DNA of 64,000 nt from an uncultured Bacteroidales bacterium (GTDB taxonomy: Bacteria > Bacteroidota > Bacteroidia > Bacteroidales > PUMT01): contig CAZFOO010000002.1 in NCBI GenBank assembly GCA_964520585.1, forward strand, positions 9,672 to 73,671. Direction: 5' to 3'. The notes below the pieces were generated by a model, which was not told the origin of the DNA, did no database searches, and worked only from the letters and a program-made list of their open reading frames with translations. The translations under genes and the position numbers were made by a program. Of the stretch, positions 1 to 58,174 are shown piece after piece (the first letter of the stretch is position 1; every line of letters begins with the position of its first letter).

Positions 1-159
1 TTTAATAATCCGACAAAAATAAGGTAAAATGTTAATTTAACTGGATTAAAGTCAGGTTTTTTACAATACTGGTTTATGAGAATAAATTATAGTTATCGTA
101 CTTTTTATCCTTATTTTACTATAACAATGTATTTGTATTAAGTATTTCACTCTAATGGA

Positions 160-290
160 ACCTGCATGGTTTATTGACCTGAGGGTCGATTTCACATGCA
201 ATAATAAGTTCTTTTAGCCATATTCATCTGATGTGAAATTCATGATTCAGATATTTTGCTTTTCAATCCATGATACCCTTATAGTTTGCC
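160..290 (+). repeat. Intergenic repeat family, copy R1: core TTGACCTGAGGGTCGATTTCACATGCA at 174-200, distal block at 224-288
   Basis: The core and the distal block (tcatctgatgtgaaattcatgattcagatattttgcttttcaatccatgataccc) align by eye to 8434-8460 / 8528-8569 and to 50174-50200 / 50221-50247. Confidence 0.7.
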
Positions 291-453
291 CATTTTATTT
301 TTGTATCGAAGTACTATGAGGTCTTCATACAGAATAGTGGTGTTAAAAAAATGGGATTAAAGATCATATTGCTCATTGATAAAAGAGCCTGTTGTAAACT
401 ATTATAAGTTTATGTTACTTTTGCCATGATTAACCATTCCTTTTGAAGTTAAA

Positions 454-8108: not shown

Positions 8109-8240
8109 TGGGGCAAGTAAAAGCGGCTTATCCCTTAGTTCTGTATTTTCTATTTTAACCAGATGCTTAAATTTATTTCAATAGTGAACATAACAAGATT
8201 TAGGTTGTAATATTGCTTAATTTTTAAGATTTCTGAATAT

Positions 8241-8578
8241 TTATCCTGTAAAAAGCAAGGAGTCAAAATTTCGTCAAGAGGGTACAAAATTTTAACATGC
8301 GGTTGATTATACATGCTATTATTAGTTCTATTCGTAGTATTCATCAGATGTATAATTGATCTGTGGTCTATTTTGAATGCAACCGACTTTACATTTTGCT
8401 AAACTGATCTGATGAAAAATTCAGATAAAAAATTTGACCTGAAGGTCGATTTCCCATGCAATATATTGCGTTTTGTTGTTATATTCTTATAAAGTATAGT
8501 TAGCACTGTGGTTAACAATGTGTTAATAATTCATGATCCGGATATTTTGCTTTTCGGTCCATGGAACCCTCATATATT
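8241..8578 (+). repeat. Intergenic repeat family, copy R2: proximal block 8241-8297, middle block 8385-8460 with core hairpin TTGACC-TGAA-GGTCGA at 8434-8449, distal block 8528-8578
   Basis: The blocks align by eye to 40245-40300, 50121-50200, 250-288, and the inverted copy at 57481-57560 (shared caatatattgcgtt). Confidence 0.75.
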
Positions 8579-8652
8579 ATTGAGATAAAAATATTAATTT
8601 CGTTGATTCCATTAAAAAAGAGATGTTAATCTAATTGCTAATATAATAGACT

Positions 8653-12394: not shown

Positions 12395-13147
12395 CTATGT
12401 TTTAAACCCGGCTTTCAGAAATTCACGGTTGAGCCTTGCTATATGCGCAAGTGATATGCCCTTGGGGCATTCGGCTTCACAGGCACCGGTATTGGTACAG
12501 CTTCCAAATCCCAGTTCGTCCATCTTCGCTATCATAGAAAGTGCACGCTTGCCGGTTTCTGCTTTTCCCTGGGGAAGAAGAGCAAGCTGCGAAACTTTTG
12601 CAGCAACAAAAAGCATGGCCGAAGAATTTTTACATGCAGCAACACATGCCCCGCAACCTATGCATATGGCTGCATCAAATGCTTCATCGGCATCTTCTTT
12701 GGGAACGGGAATGGAATTAGCCTCAGGTGCAGCACCTGAGTTGACCGAAATGAACCCTCCGGCCTGCATTATCTTATCAAAAGCCTGACGGTCCACGATC
12801 AGATCTTTAAGTACCGGAAAAGACTTTGCCCTCCATGGCTCAACGATTATGGTATCGCCGTCATTAAATCTTGTCATCCGGAGCTCACAGGTGGTTACAA
12901 GATCATCCGGGCCGTGGGGCCTTCCGTTAATATAAAGAGAGCAGGAACCGCAAATACCTTCACGGCAATCATGTTCAAAGGCCACAGGATCATCGCCGCT
13001 TTCAATTAATGTCTTGTTAAGAAAGTCAAGCATTTCAAGAAATGACATCTCTCCAGAGACGCCGGTTAGAAAATAATCCACAAAATTACCCTGGCTACCG
13101 GCGTCCTTTTGTCTCCATATTTTGAGTTTAATATCCATATTGATCAA
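12395..13147 (-). CDS. sdhB: Succinate dehydrogenase / fumarate reductase iron-sulfur subunit
   Basis: Three Cys clusters: CREGICGSC (2Fe-2S), [11 protein letters not shown] (4Fe-4S) and [12 protein letters not shown] (3Fe-4S). Confidence 0.9.
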
Positions 13148-19150: not shown

Positions 19151-20240
19151 CTACTGAGATCCGAACTCCATCAGATAAGATTTTATAAAGCCTCCCAGTT
19201 CTCCGTCAAGCACATCCTGGACGTTAGAAGTCTCATGATTTGTCCTCACATCCTTAACAAGCTTATAGGGATGAAGAACATAATTCCTTATCTGCGATCC
19301 CCATTCAATCTTCTTTTTGCCACTTTCTATCTCAGCCTGGGCCTGGCGGCGTTTTTCAAGCTCCATTTCATAAAGCTGTGACTTCAAAATCTTCATGGCA
19401 TTCTCCTTGTTCTTCAACTGCGAACGGTCCTCCTGGTTCTCAATCACAAGACCGGTAGGATGATGTCTCAACCTGACAGCTGTTTCTACCTTGTTCACAT
19501 TTTGTCCGCCTGCTCCACTGGCGCGGTAAGTTTCCCAGGTTATATCACCTGGATTGACCACGATCTCAATATTTTCATCAACCACCGGCGAAACAAAAAC
19601 TGATGCGAAACTGGTATGACGCTTATGATTCGCATCAAATGGAGAAAGCCTCACCAGACGGTGTACCCCCGATTCGCTTTTAAGATACCCATAGGCATAA
19701 TCTCCTGTGAATTCAAGGGTTACAGTCTTTATCCCGGCTTCTTCCCCTTCCTGGTAATCCAGTTGCCTGACAGTGTAACCGTTTTTTTCTCCCCACCTGA
19801 GGTACATTCTCATAAGCATTCCGGCCCAGTCGAGACTTTCTGTTCCCCCTGCACCGGCATTTATCTTTAATATAGCCCCGAGAGGATCCTCTTCACTGCT
19901 CAGCATATTCCGGAATTCCATGTCCTCTATAAAAGAAAGAGCCTTTTTGTATTGCAAATCCACTTCCTCTTCGGTAGCTTCTTCCTGCTGATAAAACTCA
20001 TAAATAACTTCCAGCTCATCCAGTGCTTCACGAACACGGTTATAACCGCTGGTCCAGTTCTTCAAAAGCGAAATTTCCCTTAACTGCCTTTCAGCTTCTT
20101 TGGAATCATCCCAGAACCCGGGGTCCTGGGTTTTTTCTTCTTTTTCTTCAATCTCTATAAGCTTCCTGTCGATGTCAAAGATGCCTCCTCAGCGCTTCAC
20201 TGCGCCTTACAAGATCTTTTAAGTTTTCTGAAGTAATCAT
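19151..20240 (-). CDS. prfB: Peptide chain release factor 2, made by a programmed +1 frameshift: join(20240..20178, 20176..19151) on the minus strand
   Basis: SPF and GGQ motifs are present. A 21-codon upstream ORF ([21 protein letters not shown]) ends at an in-frame TGA within AGGAGG-CAT-CTT-TGA-C. The +1 frame continues as [13 protein letters not shown]... into the long ORF. Confidence 0.9.
20174..20189 (-). promoter_or_regulatory. RF2 autoregulatory +1 frameshift site (SD-like AGGAGG, slippery CTT, TGA C)
   Basis: The minus strand reads aggaggcatctttgac. The E. coli paradigm is AGGGGGUAUCUUUGAC. Confidence 0.85.
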
Positions 20241-20312
20241 ATTATTATTATTATTTTTAATCTCTGTTCTGCCGATTAATTTGTTAATCACAGGCAATTA
20301 AGTTACACAAAA

Positions 20313-26115: not shown

Positions 26116-26378
26116 CACATCCTTACCTCGTCCGGTGCTTTGCAGCATTAGTTAATAGTTAACAACTATGGAAGTCTGAGAAATCCACCCGGCAGAAAAC
26201 AGGACTATCTCACAGTGAAAAGATCTTAGCAAATCCACAGCATAATGGGACCTGCCATTGCCTGCCGGGATTATGCACTGCCGGCGGCTCATTTTGTGAA
26301 TAGGAAAGTAACCCGCGAATATTTTGTGATTTAATCAACAATTATTTATCTTCGCATGCCTGCAGATTACGGCATCAG

Positions 26379-26462
26379 GCCCGGATGGCGGAATTGGTAG
26401 ACGCGCTGGTCTCAAACACCAGTGGTAGCAATACCGTGCCGGTTCGACCCCGGCTCCGGGTA
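26379..26462 (+). tRNA. tRNA-Leu (anticodon CAA), type II with a long variable arm, CCA not encoded
   Basis: Hand-folded cloverleaf: acceptor GCCCGGA/TCCGGGT, anticodon arm CTGGT-CTCAAAC-ACCAG, variable arm TGGTAGCAATACCGT, and T arm GCCGG-TTCGACC-CCGGC. Confidence 0.9.
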
Positions 26463-26464
26463 CG

Positions 26465-26502
26465 AACAACCTCCTGAAAACTTCAGGGGGTTGTTTTCTT
26501 TT
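26465..26502 (+). terminator. Rho-independent terminator after tRNA-Leu
   Basis: AACAACCTCCTGAA / TTCAGGGGGTTGTT stem (one U-G pair), a 3-nt loop, then TTCTTTT. Confidence 0.75.
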
Positions 26503-26588
26503 AGCCAGCCAGCCAACATCTACCTTCTTCGGAAATAAAGGAGTATAACAGAAGTCGCATTTAAAGATTAAAAAAATGAAATGGCTGG

Positions 26589-29500
26589 TCAAGTCTTCCG
26601 TAATCCGAGACTCTCGAAAAACCTGACAGTTTTTCTGGGAGCTTCCACAAGAATAAAAAGAAAAAGAATCAGTGTCATCAGCCATAAGACAAAAAGATTA
26701 AACCATAAGGTATTGACCTGATCATTGTTGAATATCTTTACCGAAGCATAGAAGTGTGCCCTCCCGATATTTGAATCGGGAATAAGATAAACCGGATCCT
26801 TTTTCTGAACAAGCCTTTGATCTGTTTCGTAAATCACGTTTATCTCATTCCGCCTCAGCACCATATTTGAAAGCGCTTTGTTGTGATGATTCTGCCGGAG
26901 ATGGTAAAGTTCACCGGGGCCCATTTCTGATTCGAGTGTTTTATAAATGCTGTCTCTTTCTGCAGCGGCTTCCCGTGCAACATTGGAAAAATGAAGGCGA
27001 AGGTAGATAAGGTAACCGGAGACTTCCTCAGCAACCATTTCTGTAAACCCGTCAACACTGATATTATCAATATATTCAAACGGCATTAATCCCGAAGCTC
27101 TTCTAAGGTAATCTATTTCATTGCGAAGAATAGTAAGGTTTTTCTCTGTTTCTTCAGTAACAGTACCCAGCCTGATATCCCTTTCAATAAGTTCAACTTT
27201 GGCAAGAAGACGGGGAATCAGGAATGATGCCTTGAAAGAAGCATCACTGTTTTGTTGTTCATACTCAAAGAAATGTTTCTGAAAATTATTACCGGCAAAT
27301 TGCTCGACGGCAAGAGCTTCAAAAGCCCACCGTGAAGCCATAAGATCTCCCACAAGCGGAACATGTATCTTATCGGTTACGCTGTCATGCAATTCATCAA
27401 ATTTCACCACGACACCCCCCAAAAGCAATTGGGGAACAAGTAAAAAAGGTACAAGGATATATATTGTAACCACTGAATTGAAAGCGGAGGATATTAACAA
27501 TCCCAGCATATTAGCAAAACATGCAGTACTAAAAAGTATTAACCAATAAGTCAAAGTCATCCCCCTGATCTCGAGAATTAAATTCCCCACAATAACAAAA
27601 GTGATCATCTGAATAGCGGAAACAAGAAACACCCAGCCCACCTTCGAGCTAAGGTAGCTAAACCAGCTAAGATTTAAGAATGATTCCCTTTCAAGAATTT
27701 TTCTGTCTTTTATTATCTCCTCCGCACTTACAGACATACCAAGAAAAAGAGCAACAATCACAGCCATAAATAGAAATGAGGGGAGATTTACATTTTCTGC
27801 AAAGATATATTCTCCTTCATACAGGTATTTGGTAAAGTAACCAAGAATAAAAGCAAGAACGGGTGCCTCAAGTAAACTGATAAGCAGGTATTGACGGTTA
27901 CTCAATTTGGATAGAAAATTTCGAATGCTGAAAATCATGAACTGGTTTTCAATGCCGGGAAGAGAAAACATATTGGGGGGCATTACATCTTTTCCGGGCT
28001 TAATGCTAATGCCTGATGCAATTTTTTCTTTGTAATATTTATACCATTTTGCAGGTGGGATCTTCCTTTTTTGGGTGTGGTGCCCCGAGCGGCTAACCTC
28101 TTTTGCTTCAACAATCTTAAGTATCTGCTCAGATGATATATTACCGCAACAATTGCACTCTGTCTGGCCGGCATTAACATGTCCGCTTATGGTTTTAAAA
28201 TATACCAGTGCTTCAAGCGGGTTCCCGTTATATATGGGATAACCTCCCTTATCAATTACCCATAGCTTATCAAGGAGTTTAAAATTGTCAGAAGAAGGCT
28301 GATGAATATTGGCAATGACCAGTTTCCCCTTCATTGCCTGCTCCTTAAGCAGAGCCATAACAATATCTGAATCAAGTGAAGACAGTCCGGAAGTAGGTTC
28401 ATCTACAAAAAGCACGGAAGGCTCCCGTAATAATTCCAAACCTATATTAAGCCTTTTTCTCTGCCCCCCGCTTATGAATTTTTTCAAAGGATTTCCTACC
28501 TGTAAATGACTAATCTCATCGAGCCCCAGATTGGCAAGCACCTTTTCAACAATTTCTACTATTCTCTCTTCCTTTAAATTTCCAAAACATAATTTTGCAT
28601 TATAATAAAGGTTCTGGTAAACTGTTAACTCCTCTAAAAGCATGTCGTCCTGGGGCACATAGCCTATCTGTCCTTCAATTCTGTCAGCATCTTTATGAAT
28701 ATCGTAAGAATTTACCAGTATCCTGCCCTTATCTGGTTTTAGCTTACCGTTTAAAACATTTAAAAGAGTAGACTTGCCCGAACCACTTACACCCATCACT
28801 CCGATCAGCTGACCCGACTCTTCAGAAAAACTAAATGGCCGGATGCCATTATCACTCAAAGGATAACGGAACTCAATATTATCAGCCGTCAAAACAATTT
28901 TTATTCCTGCATGACTCCGAAAAAACCGGGATGAAATATCAGAATAATATATGGGTGCAATTTTATCTCCCCTGATTATCCCGCCCCGGTTAAAAATATA
29001 AAACCGGTCGGTTAACAAAGGTTTTCCTTCATAATTAAGGTTATCATTTCCTTTATATCTGAAGACAAACATCCCGGTACTCCTTATAATCATAACGATT
29101 ATCTTCCCATCAAGAGCCTCTCTCTCAATGATTCTTTTCGAATTTTGATCCCGGGGCTTATTATTTTCAACCCATGCCCCTTCGAGGTCATCAGCAAGGG
29201 TTTTTTTTGGTTTTTTAATTACCAAAAGATTATGGGGATCAATATTCTCATTTTTGTCTTCCAGAATAAATGCCTTGGCATCCTTAACTTCTTCAGGAGA
29301 TATATTAAAACTGTCAGCTACCGTCCTGATAAATATACGTTCGGGTTCAGAAAAAATATTATCTTCATTTATAAATTCCAGGAGCCTTAAGAAAACAATG
29401 ATTCTCTCATTATGATGCAGGTCATGGTTAATTTGCCCGCAGATATTTATTACCTGATCCTTTAGCAGGGAATCTACCTTTGAACCTGCATCTATATTCT

Positions 29501-39990: not shown

Positions 39991-40244
39991 AAAATATTTA
40001 GTCTCTTATGCAATGGTTAATATTAATTTTTAAATTTTACGTAAAAAGACACAACTTAGTTATACAAAATCCATATTTTCTGGCATTTTAAATTATTTTT
40101 TTATTTGAACATCACAGCAATCTTCAATTCATCTCATCAGATAAAATCCGGAAGTATCACACGAGTCATATTTTAAATAGTAAATAACGAAGGTTACAAT
40201 TTTTCTTTCCGGAATAAATGATATTGTTTAAAATTTTTTACATT

Positions 40245-40598
40245 TATACTGTTAAAAACAAGAAGTAAAAATTTCGTCAATAAAATACAAAATTTTCACT
40301 TACAGGATGAATCGCTTCGCTTTAACTTATATTATTTAAAGTATTCAGATTATTTATCATTTATGCTACTTAGTCAGGGCTCGGAAAAAATGCTTTTCAA
40401 TCCGTGAATCGTCATACAATGTAATTCTTCTCTGATCTATTTAAAAGCACTAAAAAAGCATGTGTAATCGACGAAATCAATTTTTTTCATCCGTATGTGT
40501 GTATTTTGACTTCGTCGATTTTTCATTTAGCCAGCTTTACTTTTTGCTGATTTTGTCTGATGAAAAATTCGGATAAAAAAAATTCATGTACATTTACG
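40245..40598 (+). repeat. Intergenic repeat family, copy R4: proximal block 40245-40300, distal-type block 40383-40421, 15-bp inverted repeat 40467-40481 / 40506-40520, and a 55-nt block 40530-40584 identical to 50121-50175
   Basis: Direct comparison of the sequence with R2, R3 and R5. This copy lacks the 65-nt core module. Confidence 0.8.
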
Positions 40599-40622: not shown

Positions 40623-42287
40623 ATGATGAAAGAAAATTTTATTGAGTTTATTGGAACCAGTATTAAAAACAACTGGGATAAGCAAGCCTTTTCAGACTAC
40701 AAAGGCTCAAGCTATAAATATTCCGATGTAGCCCATAGGATAGCACGAATACATATAGCATTTGAACAGGGCGGCATTAAAAGAGGCGATCATATAGCCC
40801 TTCTTGGTAAGAATTCAGCTCACTGGACAATAGTCTACCTTGCCACCATATCTTATGGTGCAGTGATAGTTCCCATTCTTCCGGATTTCAAGCCTAAAGA
40901 CGTACATCACATTGTAACCCACTCCGATTCCAAAGTTCTATTTGTCGCCGAAAATATTCTGGAAACATTGAAAGAAACTGAAATGGCCGGGCTTCAGGCC
41001 ATATTTTCAATTAGTGATTTTTCTTTGATTTCTCATGCAGGGAAGATTGGGCTAAAAGAAAAACTTGCTTCCATTGATGATCTTTTTGAGAAAAAATATG
41101 ATGGAGGATTTAATACGGGAAACTTTACCCTTGCAGAAGTACCGAATAACGATCTGGCCGTCATTAGCTATACTTCAGGAACAACAGGGTTTTCCAAAGG
41201 AGTCATGCTACCACATAACAGTCTTATTGCTAATATTGTATATGCGCATAACAACATGCCACTTCAACCGGGAGATGCAATAGTGTCTTTTCTCCCCCTT
41301 GCACATTCTTATGGATGTGCTTTTGAATTCCTGTTCCCTTTTACGCTGGGATGTCATATAACCTTTCTTACCAAAACCCCGTCTCCTCAAATCATATTAG
41401 GAGCTTTTAAAGAGATAAGGCCCAGACTTGTACTTGCAGTACCTCTGGTAATTGAAAAAATCTACAAGAAACAGCTTCTTCCTGTTCTTGAAAAACCTTC
41501 CGTCAAATTTATGCTCAAGGTACCCGGTATCAATAACTTAATCTATAAAAAGATCCATAAAAAGTTAACCGATGCTTTTGGGGGTAATTTTCATGAGGTG
41601 GTCATTGGAGGTGCAGCCTTAAACAAAGATGTAGAACTGTTTTTTAATAAGATAGGCTTCCCTTTCTCTATCGGATATGGCATGACCGAATGCGGTCCAC
41701 TTATAAGTTATGCAAACTGGGATAAAACCAGACTCGGGTCCGCAGGCAAAATGGTTGACACTCTCGAAGTAAAGATAGATTCTGAAGATCCTTATAATGA
41801 AGTTGGGGAAATAATGGTGCGCGGAGAAAATGTGATGACTGGATATTACAAAAATGAACAAGCAACCAGTGATGTACTTGATAAGGACGGATGGCTTCAC
41901 ACAGGAGACCTGGGAGTAATTGACAAAGATGACTTCGTTTATATCAAAGGCCGGAGTAAAAGCATGTTACTGGGGCCTTCAGGCCAAAATATATATCCTG
42001 AAGAAATTGAGGCAAAACTTAATAACATGCATTATGTTCTTGAGTCGGTTGTGATTGAAAATAAAGGACGGCTGGTTGCACTGGTATATCCTGACCATGA
42101 AGCTGCCAAAAATGCCGGCATTGATGATACAAACCTGGAAGCCATAATGGAGAACCATCGCAAAGATCTTAACAATGAGCTGCCGGTTTACATGAATCTT
42201 CATAAAATACGGATATATCCTGAAGAGTTTGAAAAGACACCGAAAAAAAGCATTAAGCGTTTCCTTTATATGGGAGAAGAGGAATAG
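40623..42287 (+). CDS. Long-chain-fatty-acid--CoA ligase (AMP-binding enzyme)
   Basis: AMP-binding motif YTSGTTGFSKGVM. The homologous N-terminus starts at MMKENFIEF (40623). The ORF-track start at 40560 lies inside the repeat. Confidence 0.8.
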   Translation: MMKENFIEFIGTSIKNNWDKQAFSDYKGSSYKYSDVAHRIARIHIAFEQGGIKRGDHIALLGKNSAHWTIVYLATISYGAVIVPILPDFKPKDVHHIVTHSDSKVLFVAENILETLKETEMAGLQAIFSISDFSLISHAGKIGLKEKLASIDDLFEKKYDGGFNTGNFTLAEVPNNDLAVISYTSGTTGFSKGVMLPHNSLIANIVYAHNNMPLQPGDAIVSFLPLAHSYGCAFEFLFPFTLGCHITFLTKTPSPQIILGAFKEIRPRLVLAVPLVIEKIYKKQLLPVLEKPSVKFMLKVPGINNLIYKKIHKKLTDAFGGNFHEVVIGGAALNKDVELFFNKIGFPFSIGYGMTECGPLISYANWDKTRLGSAGKMVDTLEVKIDSEDPYNEVGEIMVRGENVMTGYYKNEQATSDVLDKDGWLHTGDLGVIDKDDFVYIKGRSKSMLLGPSGQNIYPEEIEAKLNNMHYVLESVVIENKGRLVALVYPDHEAAKNAGIDDTNLEAIMENHRKDLNNELPVYMNLHKIRIYPEEFEKTPKKSIKRFLYMGEEE

Positions 42288-49830: not shown

Positions 49831-50120
49831 TATGGGTGACTGACATCTAAATACTCACCTCGGGACCTCTCACCGGGCAAAATTCTTCGGACTAAAAATA
49901 AATTCTTCATTTTAGTTATCTGGACATGAATATACTGTAGAATACTTGCCATTCATAACAGGGTCAAATGAAACAATGCTGAATCTTTGACGTTAATTGT
50001 TCTTGTAACAGATAACCCACTATTGATTCACCATATTTGTTTTATTTCGATGTTAAATTATATAAAAAATATTACGAATTAATTTTCTGTCAGACGATTT
50101 ACAGTTATAACCTTCATTGC

Positions 50121-50250
50121 GCCAGCTTTACTTTTTGCTGATTTTGTCTGATGAAAAATTCGGATAAAAAAAATTGACCTGAAGGTCGATTTCTCATGCA
50201 AAATCTTGTTTTTTGTTAAGTTTTCAGCTGATGAGAAATTCATGTATATT
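50121..50250 (+). repeat. Intergenic repeat family, copy R3: 55-nt block 50121-50175, 65-nt core module 50176-50240 with hairpin TTGACC-TGAA-GGTCGA, then catgtatatttgtac
   Basis: 50121-50175 is identical to 40530-40584. The core aligns to 8434-8460 and 174-200. CTGATGARAAATTC occurs on both sides of the core. Confidence 0.85.
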
Positions 50251-50326
50251 TGTACAGTTATCAAATTTTTTTATTCATTCGGTTGATCGGAGCTTTAGTG
50301 TGCATACCTGCATGCACTAACCTTAT

Positions 50327-50659
50327 TTGTTAAACATGATGGACAGAAAAAGTAAAAAGAGCAGTATTGTATTCGGGATATTTCTTATTTTTGTTGGTAT
50401 TGCACTCCTGTTGAACAATCTGGAAATTATTCCCCGGCTGCTTCCGGAGTACATCTTTTCATGGAAAACATTGCTTGTAGCACTTGGTTTAATATTTGCA
50501 CTTACAGAAAAGGATAAAACCCCGGGTATTGTTCTGGCAGCTATTGGCTTTTATTTTCTGATACCTGATATATGGAATATTAATCCTAGTGAAGCCGGGC
50601 TCTTCTGGCCAATTTTATTTGTTGCTGTAGGTCTTTCAATACTTCTTTCAAGAAAGTAG
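50327..50659 (+). CDS. Small four-helix membrane protein (LiaI/LiaF-like TM domain?)
   Basis: 110 aa with four hydrophobic segments. The start may be the ATG at 50336. Family assignment is tentative. Confidence 0.5.
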   Translation: MLNMMDRKSKKSSIVFGIFLIFVGIALLLNNLEIIPRLLPEYIFSWKTLLVALGLIFALTEKDKTPGIVLAAIGFYFLIPDIWNINPSEAGLFWPILFVAVGLSILLSRK

Positions 50660-57146: not shown

Positions 57147-57440
57147 TATTTAAATAAAGTTAAAATACAAAAATCTTAATTTTCCAATTATTTAATGATG
57201 CTGGTTACTCTGCCCGGGCATAATTTTCCATATGCTCATACAGGCACTCGGCAAAGATAAATAGCACCGACAAATCCAGGTAAACTACTTTTTAAATTCG
57301 TACGATACCGGGACTCACAAAAAATTATAAATTAAATAACTATCTATACTTTAAATACCTATTAATTAGGTACTAAATCGAATAATTTAAATCAAATAAA
57401 CCCGGTACAAATGTAGATGAATTTTTTTTCATTAAAAATT

Positions 57441-57560
57441 TCACATTGACGAATGAAAATAATTTGAATTCGTCGATTACATATCAATTTAAAATTCAAT
57501 ACAACGCAATATATTGTAAGATTATCGACCTTCAGGTAAAATTTTTTTATATGAAATTAT
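57441..57560 (-). repeat. Intergenic repeat family, copy R5 (inverted orientation)
   Basis: The reverse complement reads ...ataaaaaaattttacctgaaggtcgataatcttacaatatattgcgttg...gtaatcgacgaattcaaattattttcat. This matches R2 8420-8480 and R4 40465-40490. Confidence 0.75.
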
Positions 57561-58174
57561 TTCGGGGAGAGCGGTTCGTTACCTCCCCGCCCTTTAACAG
57601 GAGAAAATTAACATTTACTAATGATATATTGTCTGAAAAATAATTAAAAAAAAAATTGTATAGTAACATTGGCTATCGTATATAAAATATTTTCTTTTAA
57701 TCAAGTTTATATATCAATATCAACAAGCAAATAATTAACTATTATTAAACAATGAAATATCAATCATTAATTAACATTATTGTTTTTAACAATTACCAAT
57801 TTTGTTGAAATTACACTATATGTCCTTATACCTAAAACTATTATGAATTATAAAATTGTTGATAATAATTATTTTTGGTATAATTTAATGTGGATATTTA
57901 AATCATTTATATTTATAAACACAATTAACAGGATATATATACCATATATTTAAATAAAATTAAAAAAGATAATAGTATATATCGTGTTAGTAAGAATTAT
58001 TTGAATGAATTGAAATGGGCATGGAAAAATACCCTAGCTTTGTAACAGGAATGATATTTTTATATGATATTTACAATTGCACTAAAAATAAATTGTTTGT
58101 ATGTATCTGAAATTGATATTGCAAAAGATATTGTAATTATATTGAATAATAAATAATCAATTACAATTGTATAG

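Follow-up and report, generated by a model that had tools for sequence, protein, structure and literature searches.

Putative nested insertion elements in the -7 promoter box of genes from a clade of soda-lake Bacteroidales

IS200/IS605 insertion sequences and their palindrome-associated derivatives lack terminal inverted repeats, generate no target duplication, recognize a short oriented target and carry subterminal hairpins. BOX elements of Streptococcus pneumoniae, organized as boxA-boxB(n)-boxC, are small intergenic modular repeats that form stem-loops and often lie near gene starts; to our knowledge, they have no defined promoter-box target. Repetitive extragenic palindromic (REP) sequences are G+C-rich, and most of them reside at gene 3' ends or in gaps where genes converge. 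They measure 20-40 bp and bear a GTAG or CGTC tag (PMC3733652). BrickBuilt, a MITE (miniature inverted-repeat transposable element) that Porphyromonas gingivalis carries, is described as species-restricted, always intergenic and composed of a leader, a tail and an internal tandem repeat, with promoter elements (PMC4596501). Housekeeping promoters of Bacteroides have a -7 box with the consensus TAnnTTTG and a -33 TTTG (PMC9330008), and silent resistance genes can receive outward TAnnTTTG promoters from Bacteroides insertion sequences (reviewed in PMC9330008). Here, these systems are compared with five related intergenic stretches, R1 to R5, found in a 64,000-nucleotide (nt) segment of an uncultured Bacteroidales genome (contig CAZFOO010000002.1), referred to as the window.

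The five stretches are best read as a lineage-restricted family of small non-coding nested insertion elements, in which an element termed A occupies the -7 box of a promoter and a hairpin unit termed U is nested in A. We assign this reading a probability of about 0.7. It draws direct support from insertion polymorphism with exact empty sites, the element junctions, the nesting itself, a covarying stem, restriction to one clade and the diversity of the downstream genes.

A first-pass annotation of the window had reported that the five stretches share sequence blocks, labeled a to d. A repeat search and a blastn-short self-comparison recovered every block where it had been placed, at 160-290 (R1), 8241-8578 (R2), 40245-40598 (R4), 50121-50250 (R3) and 57441-57560 (R5, inverted), with E values of 1e-4 to 4e-26 among the window copies. 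The two copies of block a (8220-8296 and 40223-40299) share 77% identity. Block b occurs at 8374-8436, 40522-40584 and 50113-50175, and the R3 part at 50121-50175 is identical to R4 at 55/55 positions (E = 4e-26). Block c lies at 167-217, 8427-8477 and 50167-50217, with an inverted copy at 57524-57558, and block d at 237-283 and 8528-8574 (85% identity), with a weaker copy at 40374-40407. The mosaic arrangement reported for these blocks is real, but none of the blocks is a free module. The 3' and 5' parts of adjacent units U of about 74 nt make up blocks b and c, respectively, b being the 3' half of the preceding unit plus a linker, whereas block a is the left arm of A.

Evidence for insertion comes from syntenic loci of relatives at 80-88% protein identity, which were fetched via homologues of DusB, the acyl-CoA ligase and RuvB; labels such as L026 denote loci from related genomes. 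Empty orthologous sites with exact junctions were found at three loci, namely R4, sdhC and R5. At R4, the sites in L088, L089 and L090 hold a single tttttttTACATTTAc.g.taaaccaa about 30 nt before ATGATGAA, and their box, TACATTTA, agrees with the window both in the T-run upstream of it and in the cg.taaaccaa...ATGATGAA downstream. In the window, that box contains a 350-nt element, made up of a 343-nt body and its own right-end 7-mer, with TACATTT on both sides of the body. The sdhC site is a single TATATTTG in the window and in L030; in L029, a 133-nt element A stands there between two copies of TATATTT, and in L026/L024 a unit-type insert ends at the same box. The empty R5 site in L095 reads agataatgtTAATTTTGtggtgat (box stretch TAATTTTG), and the window reads agtaaatgtTAATTTT|C-TCCTGTTAA...TTCATC-TACATTT|G, with TAATTTT on the left. 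At R5, the left 7-mer equals the native box, from which the right 7-mer departs. Spacer lengths also differ at R1 and R2. The R1 region comprises about 320 nt of extra DNA relative to the orthologous spacers of L026, L029 and L030, and the dusB-CPBP spacer that contains R2 spans 544 nt in the window versus 355, 182 and 167 nt in relatives, the two shortest of which have no unit. A conserved motif upstream of dusB, cttgttatgttcac (window 8109-8180), is common to the spacers of L026, L029 and L030 and probably represents the promoter region native to dusB, which the R2 insertion leaves intact.

Element A measures about 130-150 nt without passengers, and composites extend from 130 to 350 nt with no open reading frame (ORF). 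Its left end, which is block a, reads (A/C)T(C/A)CTGTAAG...CTTACAGGAGGAACCGCTTCGC..., and the initial (A/C)T(C/A)CTGT... was seen in L002, L004, L005, L011, L029 and R4. The right end reads ...CTGAAAAAA(T)TTCATG, or in another rendering ...TTTTTTCATCCGTCTGTGTGTAATTTAAGCTGAAAAAA(T)TTCATG, and is followed by the element's own TAYATTT. To the left of A, the flank is always TAnnTTT, directly joined to the same element end in a single orientation. The simplest reading of these junctions is that A inserts between positions 7 and 8 of the native Bacteroidota -7 box, TAnnTTT^G. After insertion, the 7-mer borne by A would join the native G, such that a full TAYATTTG box appears rebuilt at the native distance from the gene, and the original box, with everything upstream of it, is displaced 150-350 nt from the gene. 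A purely element-borne portable promoter was considered as an account of the terminal box and rejected, given that the empty sites show a native box already in place. Simple target duplication also seems unlikely at A, because the right-hand 7-mer of R5, TACATTT, is not the native TAATTTT, a difference that speaks for a copy borne by the element.

The first-pass suggestion of a MITE-like element thus held in part. The empty orthologous sites at three loci, the exact junctions and the presence or absence of a unit in an otherwise identical block a are in its favor; the element is nonetheless not a classical MITE, as its flanking 7-mers do not look like a simple target duplication and terminal inverted repeats are not visible. 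By-eye comparison of the left end, (A/C)T(C/A)CTGTAAG, with the reverse complement of the right end, CATGAAATTTTTTCAG, yielded no convincing match in seven copies. Also by eye, an inverted repeat was seen near the left end (TCCTGTAAG / CTTACAGGA), which is perfect in L011 and weak in R4 and L029, and another at the right (AAATTTTTTC / GAAAAAATTT), an A/T repeat of low complexity.

TAYATTT stands on both flanks in seven copies of A (six from a systematic scan and L017 by eye), and the paired 7-mers agree at 7/7 positions in three copies and at 6/7 in four. Each of the 16 boxes located after an array-terminal unit reads TACATTT or TATATTT, and a CA or TA middle pair occurs in only 10 of 52 ordinary boxes upstream of genes. 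Flanks of this kind also bear on an alternative we regard as improbable, in which the repeats spread by recombination or gene conversion between promoters and the box-like flanks provide the homology for exchange. Groups of highly similar promoters before different genes are documented in prokaryotes (PMC3575422), the flanks here are always promoter boxes with short shared homologies, the single-base difference in four of seven flank pairs is what donor and target cores that differ would leave, and a mobilizing enzyme was not found in the window or beside the units. Such exchange, however, would have to operate on 7 bp, a very short length for homologous recombination, and to create identical precise ends at unrelated loci. 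It also leaves unexplained the units found at several positions, some inverted, inside A where the box is absent, and the covarying stem and conserved hairpin suggest recognition of structure instead.

Within the family as a whole, the mosaic appears to be nesting, with U as a second mobile module that would land inside A. Units occur inside A in either orientation and in up to three tandem copies, as in R2, which explains the mosaic noted in the first-pass annotation. Most of them sit at the junction of an A-tract and a T-tract. No unit occupies the block a loop in L004, L005, L011, L015, L029 and R4, and one of 72-73 nt fills it in L002, L081 and window copy R2. Other units follow the right-hand A-run, lie in the right-hand loop, or are inverted after an A-run of the other strand; the inverted ones form head-to-head doublets in L011, L015, L022, L077, R4 and R5. 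Candidate duplications flanking U (TT, AATT and TTGAC) each fit only some of the junctions and were discarded. Block d is a further module found only in the lineage of the window, where blastn-short matches only R1 and R2. Yet another module type, present at L026 9764-9851 and L011 421-461, has G+C-richer arms, AAACCCGCAT ... ATGCGGGTTT, followed by CATCTGTATTTG, and is probably another subfamily missed by the unit model. In L026, it lies in the dusB-CPBP spacer and faces dusB, opposite to the array in window copy R2.

Unit U is a hairpin module of about 70-74 nt with 24-43% G+C (the window has 39%). It begins with block c, as seen in the flanks of true hits, and consists of an A-run, hairpin 1 (TTGACCTGAAGGTCGA) and the arms of stem 2 around some 35 nt. 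Hairpin 1 is a conserved 6-bp hairpin of 13-16 nt, TTGAC(C)-loop-(G)GTCGA; its T·G pair is kept in 43 of 44 units, and a shorter form, TTGACTTCGTCGA, changes the spacing by 3 nt. Stem 2 has 9 bp, with arms ATTTCNCAT / ATGN'GAAAT. A covariance model of U returned 50 matches in the window and related loci, corresponding to 44 distinct units, and its window matches at E < 2e-4 are confined to the five spacers (Table 1).

Pairing in the 9-bp stem is maintained by compensatory change, seen at four of its positions. In an alignment fitted to the model structure, standard pairs fill 95.2% of cells across the 44 units versus 87.5% in shuffles, six pairs changed on both sides versus 3.3 (1 of 500 shuffles reaches 6), and the covariation score is 0.209 versus 0.077 in shuffles (0 of 500 reach it) and 0.02-0.11 with the partners slid. 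One stem position carries all four Watson-Crick pairs (CG 13, AU 12, UA 10 and GC 4). The arm variants include ATTATACAT/ATGTATAAT, ATTACACAT/ATGTGTAAT, ATTTTTCAT/ATGAAAAAT and TTTTGCAT/ATGCAAAA, and neighboring tandem units bear different variants, which indicates that pairing takes place within a unit. Units are 88-97% identical between genomes in which orthologous proteins share 63-88% identity and spacers are unalignable. The period of about 74 nt raised the possibility of a CRISPR-like array, which was rejected since the "spacers" are conserved subfamilies and the arrays have only one to three units.

Such compensatory change is also an argument for a rival we consider distinctly improbable, that the units act chiefly as structured RNAs, whether as a family of small RNAs or as 5' leaders whose transcription starts from the displaced native box and runs into the element, and that their stems are kept by selection on RNA folding. 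The T·G pair of hairpin 1 would read as a G·U wobble in plus-strand RNA, the native box and its upstream region remain just left of A and make transcription into A plausible, and a T-run comes after hairpin 1 on the minus strand. Nevertheless, the mismatches in the stem other than the conserved T·G (G·T 9, A·C 14 and about 14 others) favor neither strand, so that neither strand resembles a selected RNA, and fold z-scores of single units are ordinary, ranging from only -0.2 to -2. An intrinsic terminator on the minus strand formed by hairpin 1 and the T-run was rejected, as a terminator scan calls hairpin 1 on neither strand and the real terminators of this genome have much longer stems of 7-13 bp. 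A conserved promoter ahead of the units was not seen, and units lie in both orientations inside A. The first-pass annotation could match the repeats to no known RNA family by eye; Rfam 15 at the gathering threshold matched only tRNA-Leu(CAA) in the window (26379-26463) and, at E <= 1, nothing in six related loci. The structured RNA proposed in the first-pass annotation is therefore not supported: it has no Rfam match, no strand bias in its mismatches and ordinary fold stability, and no dedicated promoter or terminator was found.

The position of the elements relative to genes is consistent with the -7 box as their target. In 16 of 16 cases, arrays end 3 nt (18 nt with the linker) before TACATTT or TATATTT plus one base (G, A or C). 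From this box to the next ATG on the same strand, the distance is 19-101 nt in 13 of the 16 arrays and 148-232 nt in the other three; strict TAnnTTTG boxes stand 19-57 nt upstream of several window genes free of the element. The -33 and -7 elements of Bacteroidota promoters are spaced by about 19 nt, and the conserved loop motif ATTTTCA of U sets TTTC, a 3-of-4 match to the -33 TTTG, at a distance of exactly 19 nt upstream of the box. Every window copy, like most copies in related loci, is located upstream of a gene start, and within the window none occupies a convergent 3' gap; for the window, the earlier annotation had stated both points. Its view that orientation makes a weak test was too cautious, given that high-scoring units face the start of a same-strand gene in the window and in related genomes. 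Target specificity suffices to explain this 5' position and orientation, and a regulatory role is not needed.

Binding sites of a global regulator or an alternative sigma factor, which would make the blocks the mark of a regulon, are a highly improbable alternative. The location of every window copy upstream of a gene start would suit a regulon, as would the highly conserved and nearly palindromic sequence of the hairpin. The downstream genes, however, are unrelated housekeeping genes with no common function, among them those for release factor 2 (RF2), fumarase, a lytic transglycosylase, a TonB-dependent receptor, a ZIP transporter, cyclophilin, Ppx/GppA, SdhC and acyl-CoA ligases, and the orthologous genes of relatives lack the element. 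The identity of R3 and R4 at 55/55 positions includes positions that vary among other copies, and the 3-nt spacing tolerance seen between TTGACCTGAAGGTCGA and TTGACTTCGTCGA fits a hairpin but not a double-stranded operator or protein site. Consequently, the shared promoter or regulator module proposed earlier stands with respect to its promoter link, through the apparent targeting of the -7 box by A, and fails with respect to co-regulation, for which the downstream genes offer no theme.

Returning to nested insertion elements, both modules would be moved in trans by a putative enzyme that reads hairpins in single-stranded DNA. The logic would be that of IS200/IS605, which does without terminal inverted repeats and target duplication and relies on a short, strand-specific target and on hairpins close to both ends. 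Reading of hairpins in single-stranded DNA would explain why the stem covaries without the strand bias expected of RNA. The rebuilt box, together with the TTTC 19 nt upstream in unit-bearing copies, may keep the gene transcribed, and the gene would be cut off from its former upstream control region. A bolder extension, which we think speculative and improbable, is that A finds the -7 box where RNA polymerase melts DNA. In this scenario, a single-strand-specific transposase would act on the non-template strand of open complexes, making A a promoter-swapping device with the hairpin units as recognition handles. Such insertion would be specific to promoter and strand, retaining the core box and its spacing to the gene while replacing the upstream regulatory DNA.

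Several observations weigh against nested insertion elements as the explanation. No transposase or recombinase was found in the window, which encodes only housekeeping genes, or beside units in related loci, and movement is something we only infer. The choice between a duplicated and an element-borne 7-mer depends mainly on one empty site, R5, and the majority of TAYATTT sites in the window carry no element. TACTTTT flanks R1 on either side, yet native upstream sequence adjoins the right copy; R2 has no recognizable right-hand box; and both R1 and R2 end in block d and not in the standard right end. Some variant units face the 3' ends of genes (L011, L013, L022 and L077), and those of L090 lie in a gap between two same-direction genes, near an extra small ORF. 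Four conspecific assemblies, 99.5-99.99% identical to the window, show no indel at R3-R5, and recent movement is accordingly not supported. Lastly, fitting the covariation alignment to the model structure favors pairing; an independent MAFFT alignment recovers the same main covarying pair.

The family is restricted to one clade of uncultured soda-lake Bacteroidales. A scan with the block c core over one genome per species returned 24 loci, 16 of them in four metagenome-assembled genomes (MAGs) of Bacteroidales from soda-lake sediment (SLJO01, SKND01, PWPZ01 and SKQJ01). The other eight, in unrelated phyla, were dismissed because they are G+C-rich, lack the flanking motifs of the unit and match in number the chance estimate for a 20-mer. 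A metagenome scan gave 55 loci, with genuine units from one soda-lake sediment sample only. A phage origin was discounted, as scans of viral contigs produced only a chance hit and none that was genuine. Unit-adjacent orthologues of the neighbors of R3-R5 were not found in other genomes; the ligase next to L015, considered as a shared orthologous site, is a 30% paralogue of the window gene. Contigs start or end inside repeats at L025 (position 1), L001 (28-100), L005 (1-73), L015 (1-119) and L081 (1-172), which indicates that the repeats break short-read assemblies and that copy numbers in MAGs are underestimates. Proteins 100% identical to window genes (P0121 and P0241) appear under "Bacteroidales bacterium" and "Cyclobacteriaceae bacterium" in two NCBI MAGs, and the taxonomic labels of these two assemblies disagree.

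Table 1. Features of the five window copies, with positions in the window. Bits and E values are from the covariance model of U; "model match" marks the units it returned.
Copy	Feature	Position	Strand	Remarks
R1	Unit U (model match)	168-241	+	Hairpin 1 TTGACCTGAGGGTCGA; stem 2 arms ATTTCACAT / ATGTGAAAT; 77.6 bits, E = 6e-16
R1	Block d module	237-290	+	Comes after the unit, in place of the usual right end of other copies
R1	Native -7 box TACTTTTG of gene 454-1902	416-423	+	Outside the repeat; same box in L026, L029 and L030; 30 nt before ATG
R1	Second TACTTTT	99-105		May mark the left edge of the insert; ambiguous
R2	Left arm of A (block a)	8243-8291	+	Preceded by box-like ATATTT(A) at 8237-8243
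R2	Unit U in block a loop (model match)	8286-8358	+	51 bits, E = 1.6e-9; hairpin 1 TTAACATGCGGTTGA, a compensated variant; stem 2 arms ATTATACAT / ATGTATAAT
R2	Degenerate unit U	8359-8427	+	By eye, below model threshold; 3' half is block b, with a 96% match to 40556-40580
R2	Unit U, block c (model match)	8428-8502	+	Hairpin 1 and 5' arm intact, 3' arm decayed; 61.2 bits, E = 5.5e-12
R2	Block d module	8528-8580	+	
R4	Native -7 box 7-mer TACATTT, left flank	40239-40245	+	Native upstream T-run present
R4	Composite element A	40246-40595	+	Empty site in relatives at 80-84% ligase identity
R4	Left arm / block a	40246-40330	+	
R4	Block-d-like piece	40374-40407		
R4	Weak unit	40422-40486	inverted	
R4	Unit U (model match)	40500-40570	+	
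R4	Right end GGATAAAAAAAATTCATG	40571-40588	+	Own TACATTT at 40589-40595; apparent rebuilt box TACATTTA ends 26 nt before ATG at 40623
R3	Left flank TAATTTT	50080-50086	+	Presumed native box 7-mer from the R5-like pattern, with no empty R3 site
R3	Element	50087-50251	+	92.7 bits; partial unit (block b, 50113-50167), full U (model match, 50168-50241), TTCATG, own TATATTT (50245-50251); apparent rebuilt box TATATTTG 83 nt before ATG at 50336
R5	Element A	57409-57603	-	Left end C-TCCTGTTAA starts at 57603; 34 bits, E = 2e-5; unit U (model match, minus strand) 57475-57546; right end TTCATC, then own TACATTT (57409-57415); apparent rebuilt box TACATTTG (57408-57415) faces rpiB
R5	Native -7 box 7-mer TAATTTT, left flank	57604-57610	-	Empty site in L095

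Some features of the surrounding sequence are recorded here in their own right. The rpiB-ruvB spacer around R5 (window 57147-58174) is very A+T-rich and unusually long, with 1028 nt versus 675 nt in L095; only about 195 nt of this length belongs to the element, and the apparent rebuilt box lies 261 nt before the rpiB ATG, where a long leader or an unannotated small gene may exist. The gap between the ligase and FGGY-kinase genes in L090 (11657-12932) extends over 1276 nt, with an extra 153-aa ORF and minus-strand units at 12499-12587 and 12629-12710, which places these units in a setting other than 5'; in the window and L088, the same gap is 153-172 nt long and has a conserved terminator. The RF2 ORF of the window (19151-20300, minus strand) starts inside the PCRF domain, at profile position 36, and that of L077 (10058-10813) at profile position 91. 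A programmed +1 frameshift in prfB is well known and would produce such starts. An ORF at 26335-26685 on the minus strand is almost certainly spurious because it overlaps the tRNA-Leu(CAA) gene.

Small mobile repeats are common, and the new aspect of this family would be a promoter-box target with the box rebuilt. A literature search on TAnnTTTG found no published case of insertion inside a -7 box or core promoter element with rebuilding. If the proposed reading is true, each insertion leaves a consensus -7 box at the native distance and detaches the gene from its upstream DNA, which would offer one lineage a straightforward means of rewiring the control of many housekeeping genes. In addition, the conserved hairpin provides a specific probe for the soda-lake clade.

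Among described systems, IS200/IS605 elements share several properties with A, which has no inverted repeats between its ends and no clear target duplication, enters directly 3' of a short, specific target in a single orientation, possesses a right end that resembles the target and may have an inverted repeat near each end; the pairing of the stem is likewise kept without RNA-type strand bias. In contrast to those elements, neither a Y1/HUH transposase nor TnpB nor an autonomous copy turned up in the window or the fetched loci, the 7-nt target of A coincides with a promoter element, and the left inverted repeat, which is poorly conserved, occupies a terminal and not a subterminal position. Membership in IS200/IS605 is a lead, not a result. 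With classical MITEs, the family shares small size, lack of coding capacity, multiple copies (44 distinct units) and insertion polymorphism, but A has no terminal inverted repeats, and a parent insertion sequence with the ends of A was not found in the window or the fetched related loci. Insertion sequences of Bacteroides similarly bring a Bacteroidota-type promoter element next to a gene; they bear a transposase and have no promoter-box target, whereas the miniature A appears to insert inside an existing box and replace it.

In architecture, parallels come from repeats of other kinds. REP, BIME and REPIN sequences are also short hairpin repeats arranged in mosaics and head-to-head doublets (PMC3733652, PMC8049555), and the sequence of U, like that of REPs and REPINs, stays conserved between diverged genomes, as though a trans-acting enzyme constrained it. 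Unlike REPs, however, U is A+T-rich, about 70 nt long and located in 5' regions, with no RAYT gene seen, no conserved GTAG tag seen and CGTC confined to the variant hairpin TTGACTTCGTCGA; on size, composition and location, U is not a REP. Like BOX, A and U are small and intergenic, have variable tandem internal units, can form stem-loops and lie near gene starts, but the sequences are unrelated, the phylum is different, and U is separately inserted in both orientations and covaries. BrickBuilt resembles A and U in being a lineage-restricted, modular and intergenic element of the Bacteroidota with promoter elements, and differs from them in its 23-nt tandem repeats and small inverted-repeat ends (PMC4596501). 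U, by comparison, measures about 70 nt with a covarying stem, and A has ends without inverted repeats and an apparent insertion site that is the -7 box itself. By the features compared, the family is a member of none of these groups; it works most like a miniature IS200/IS605-type element and is built most like BOX or BrickBuilt.

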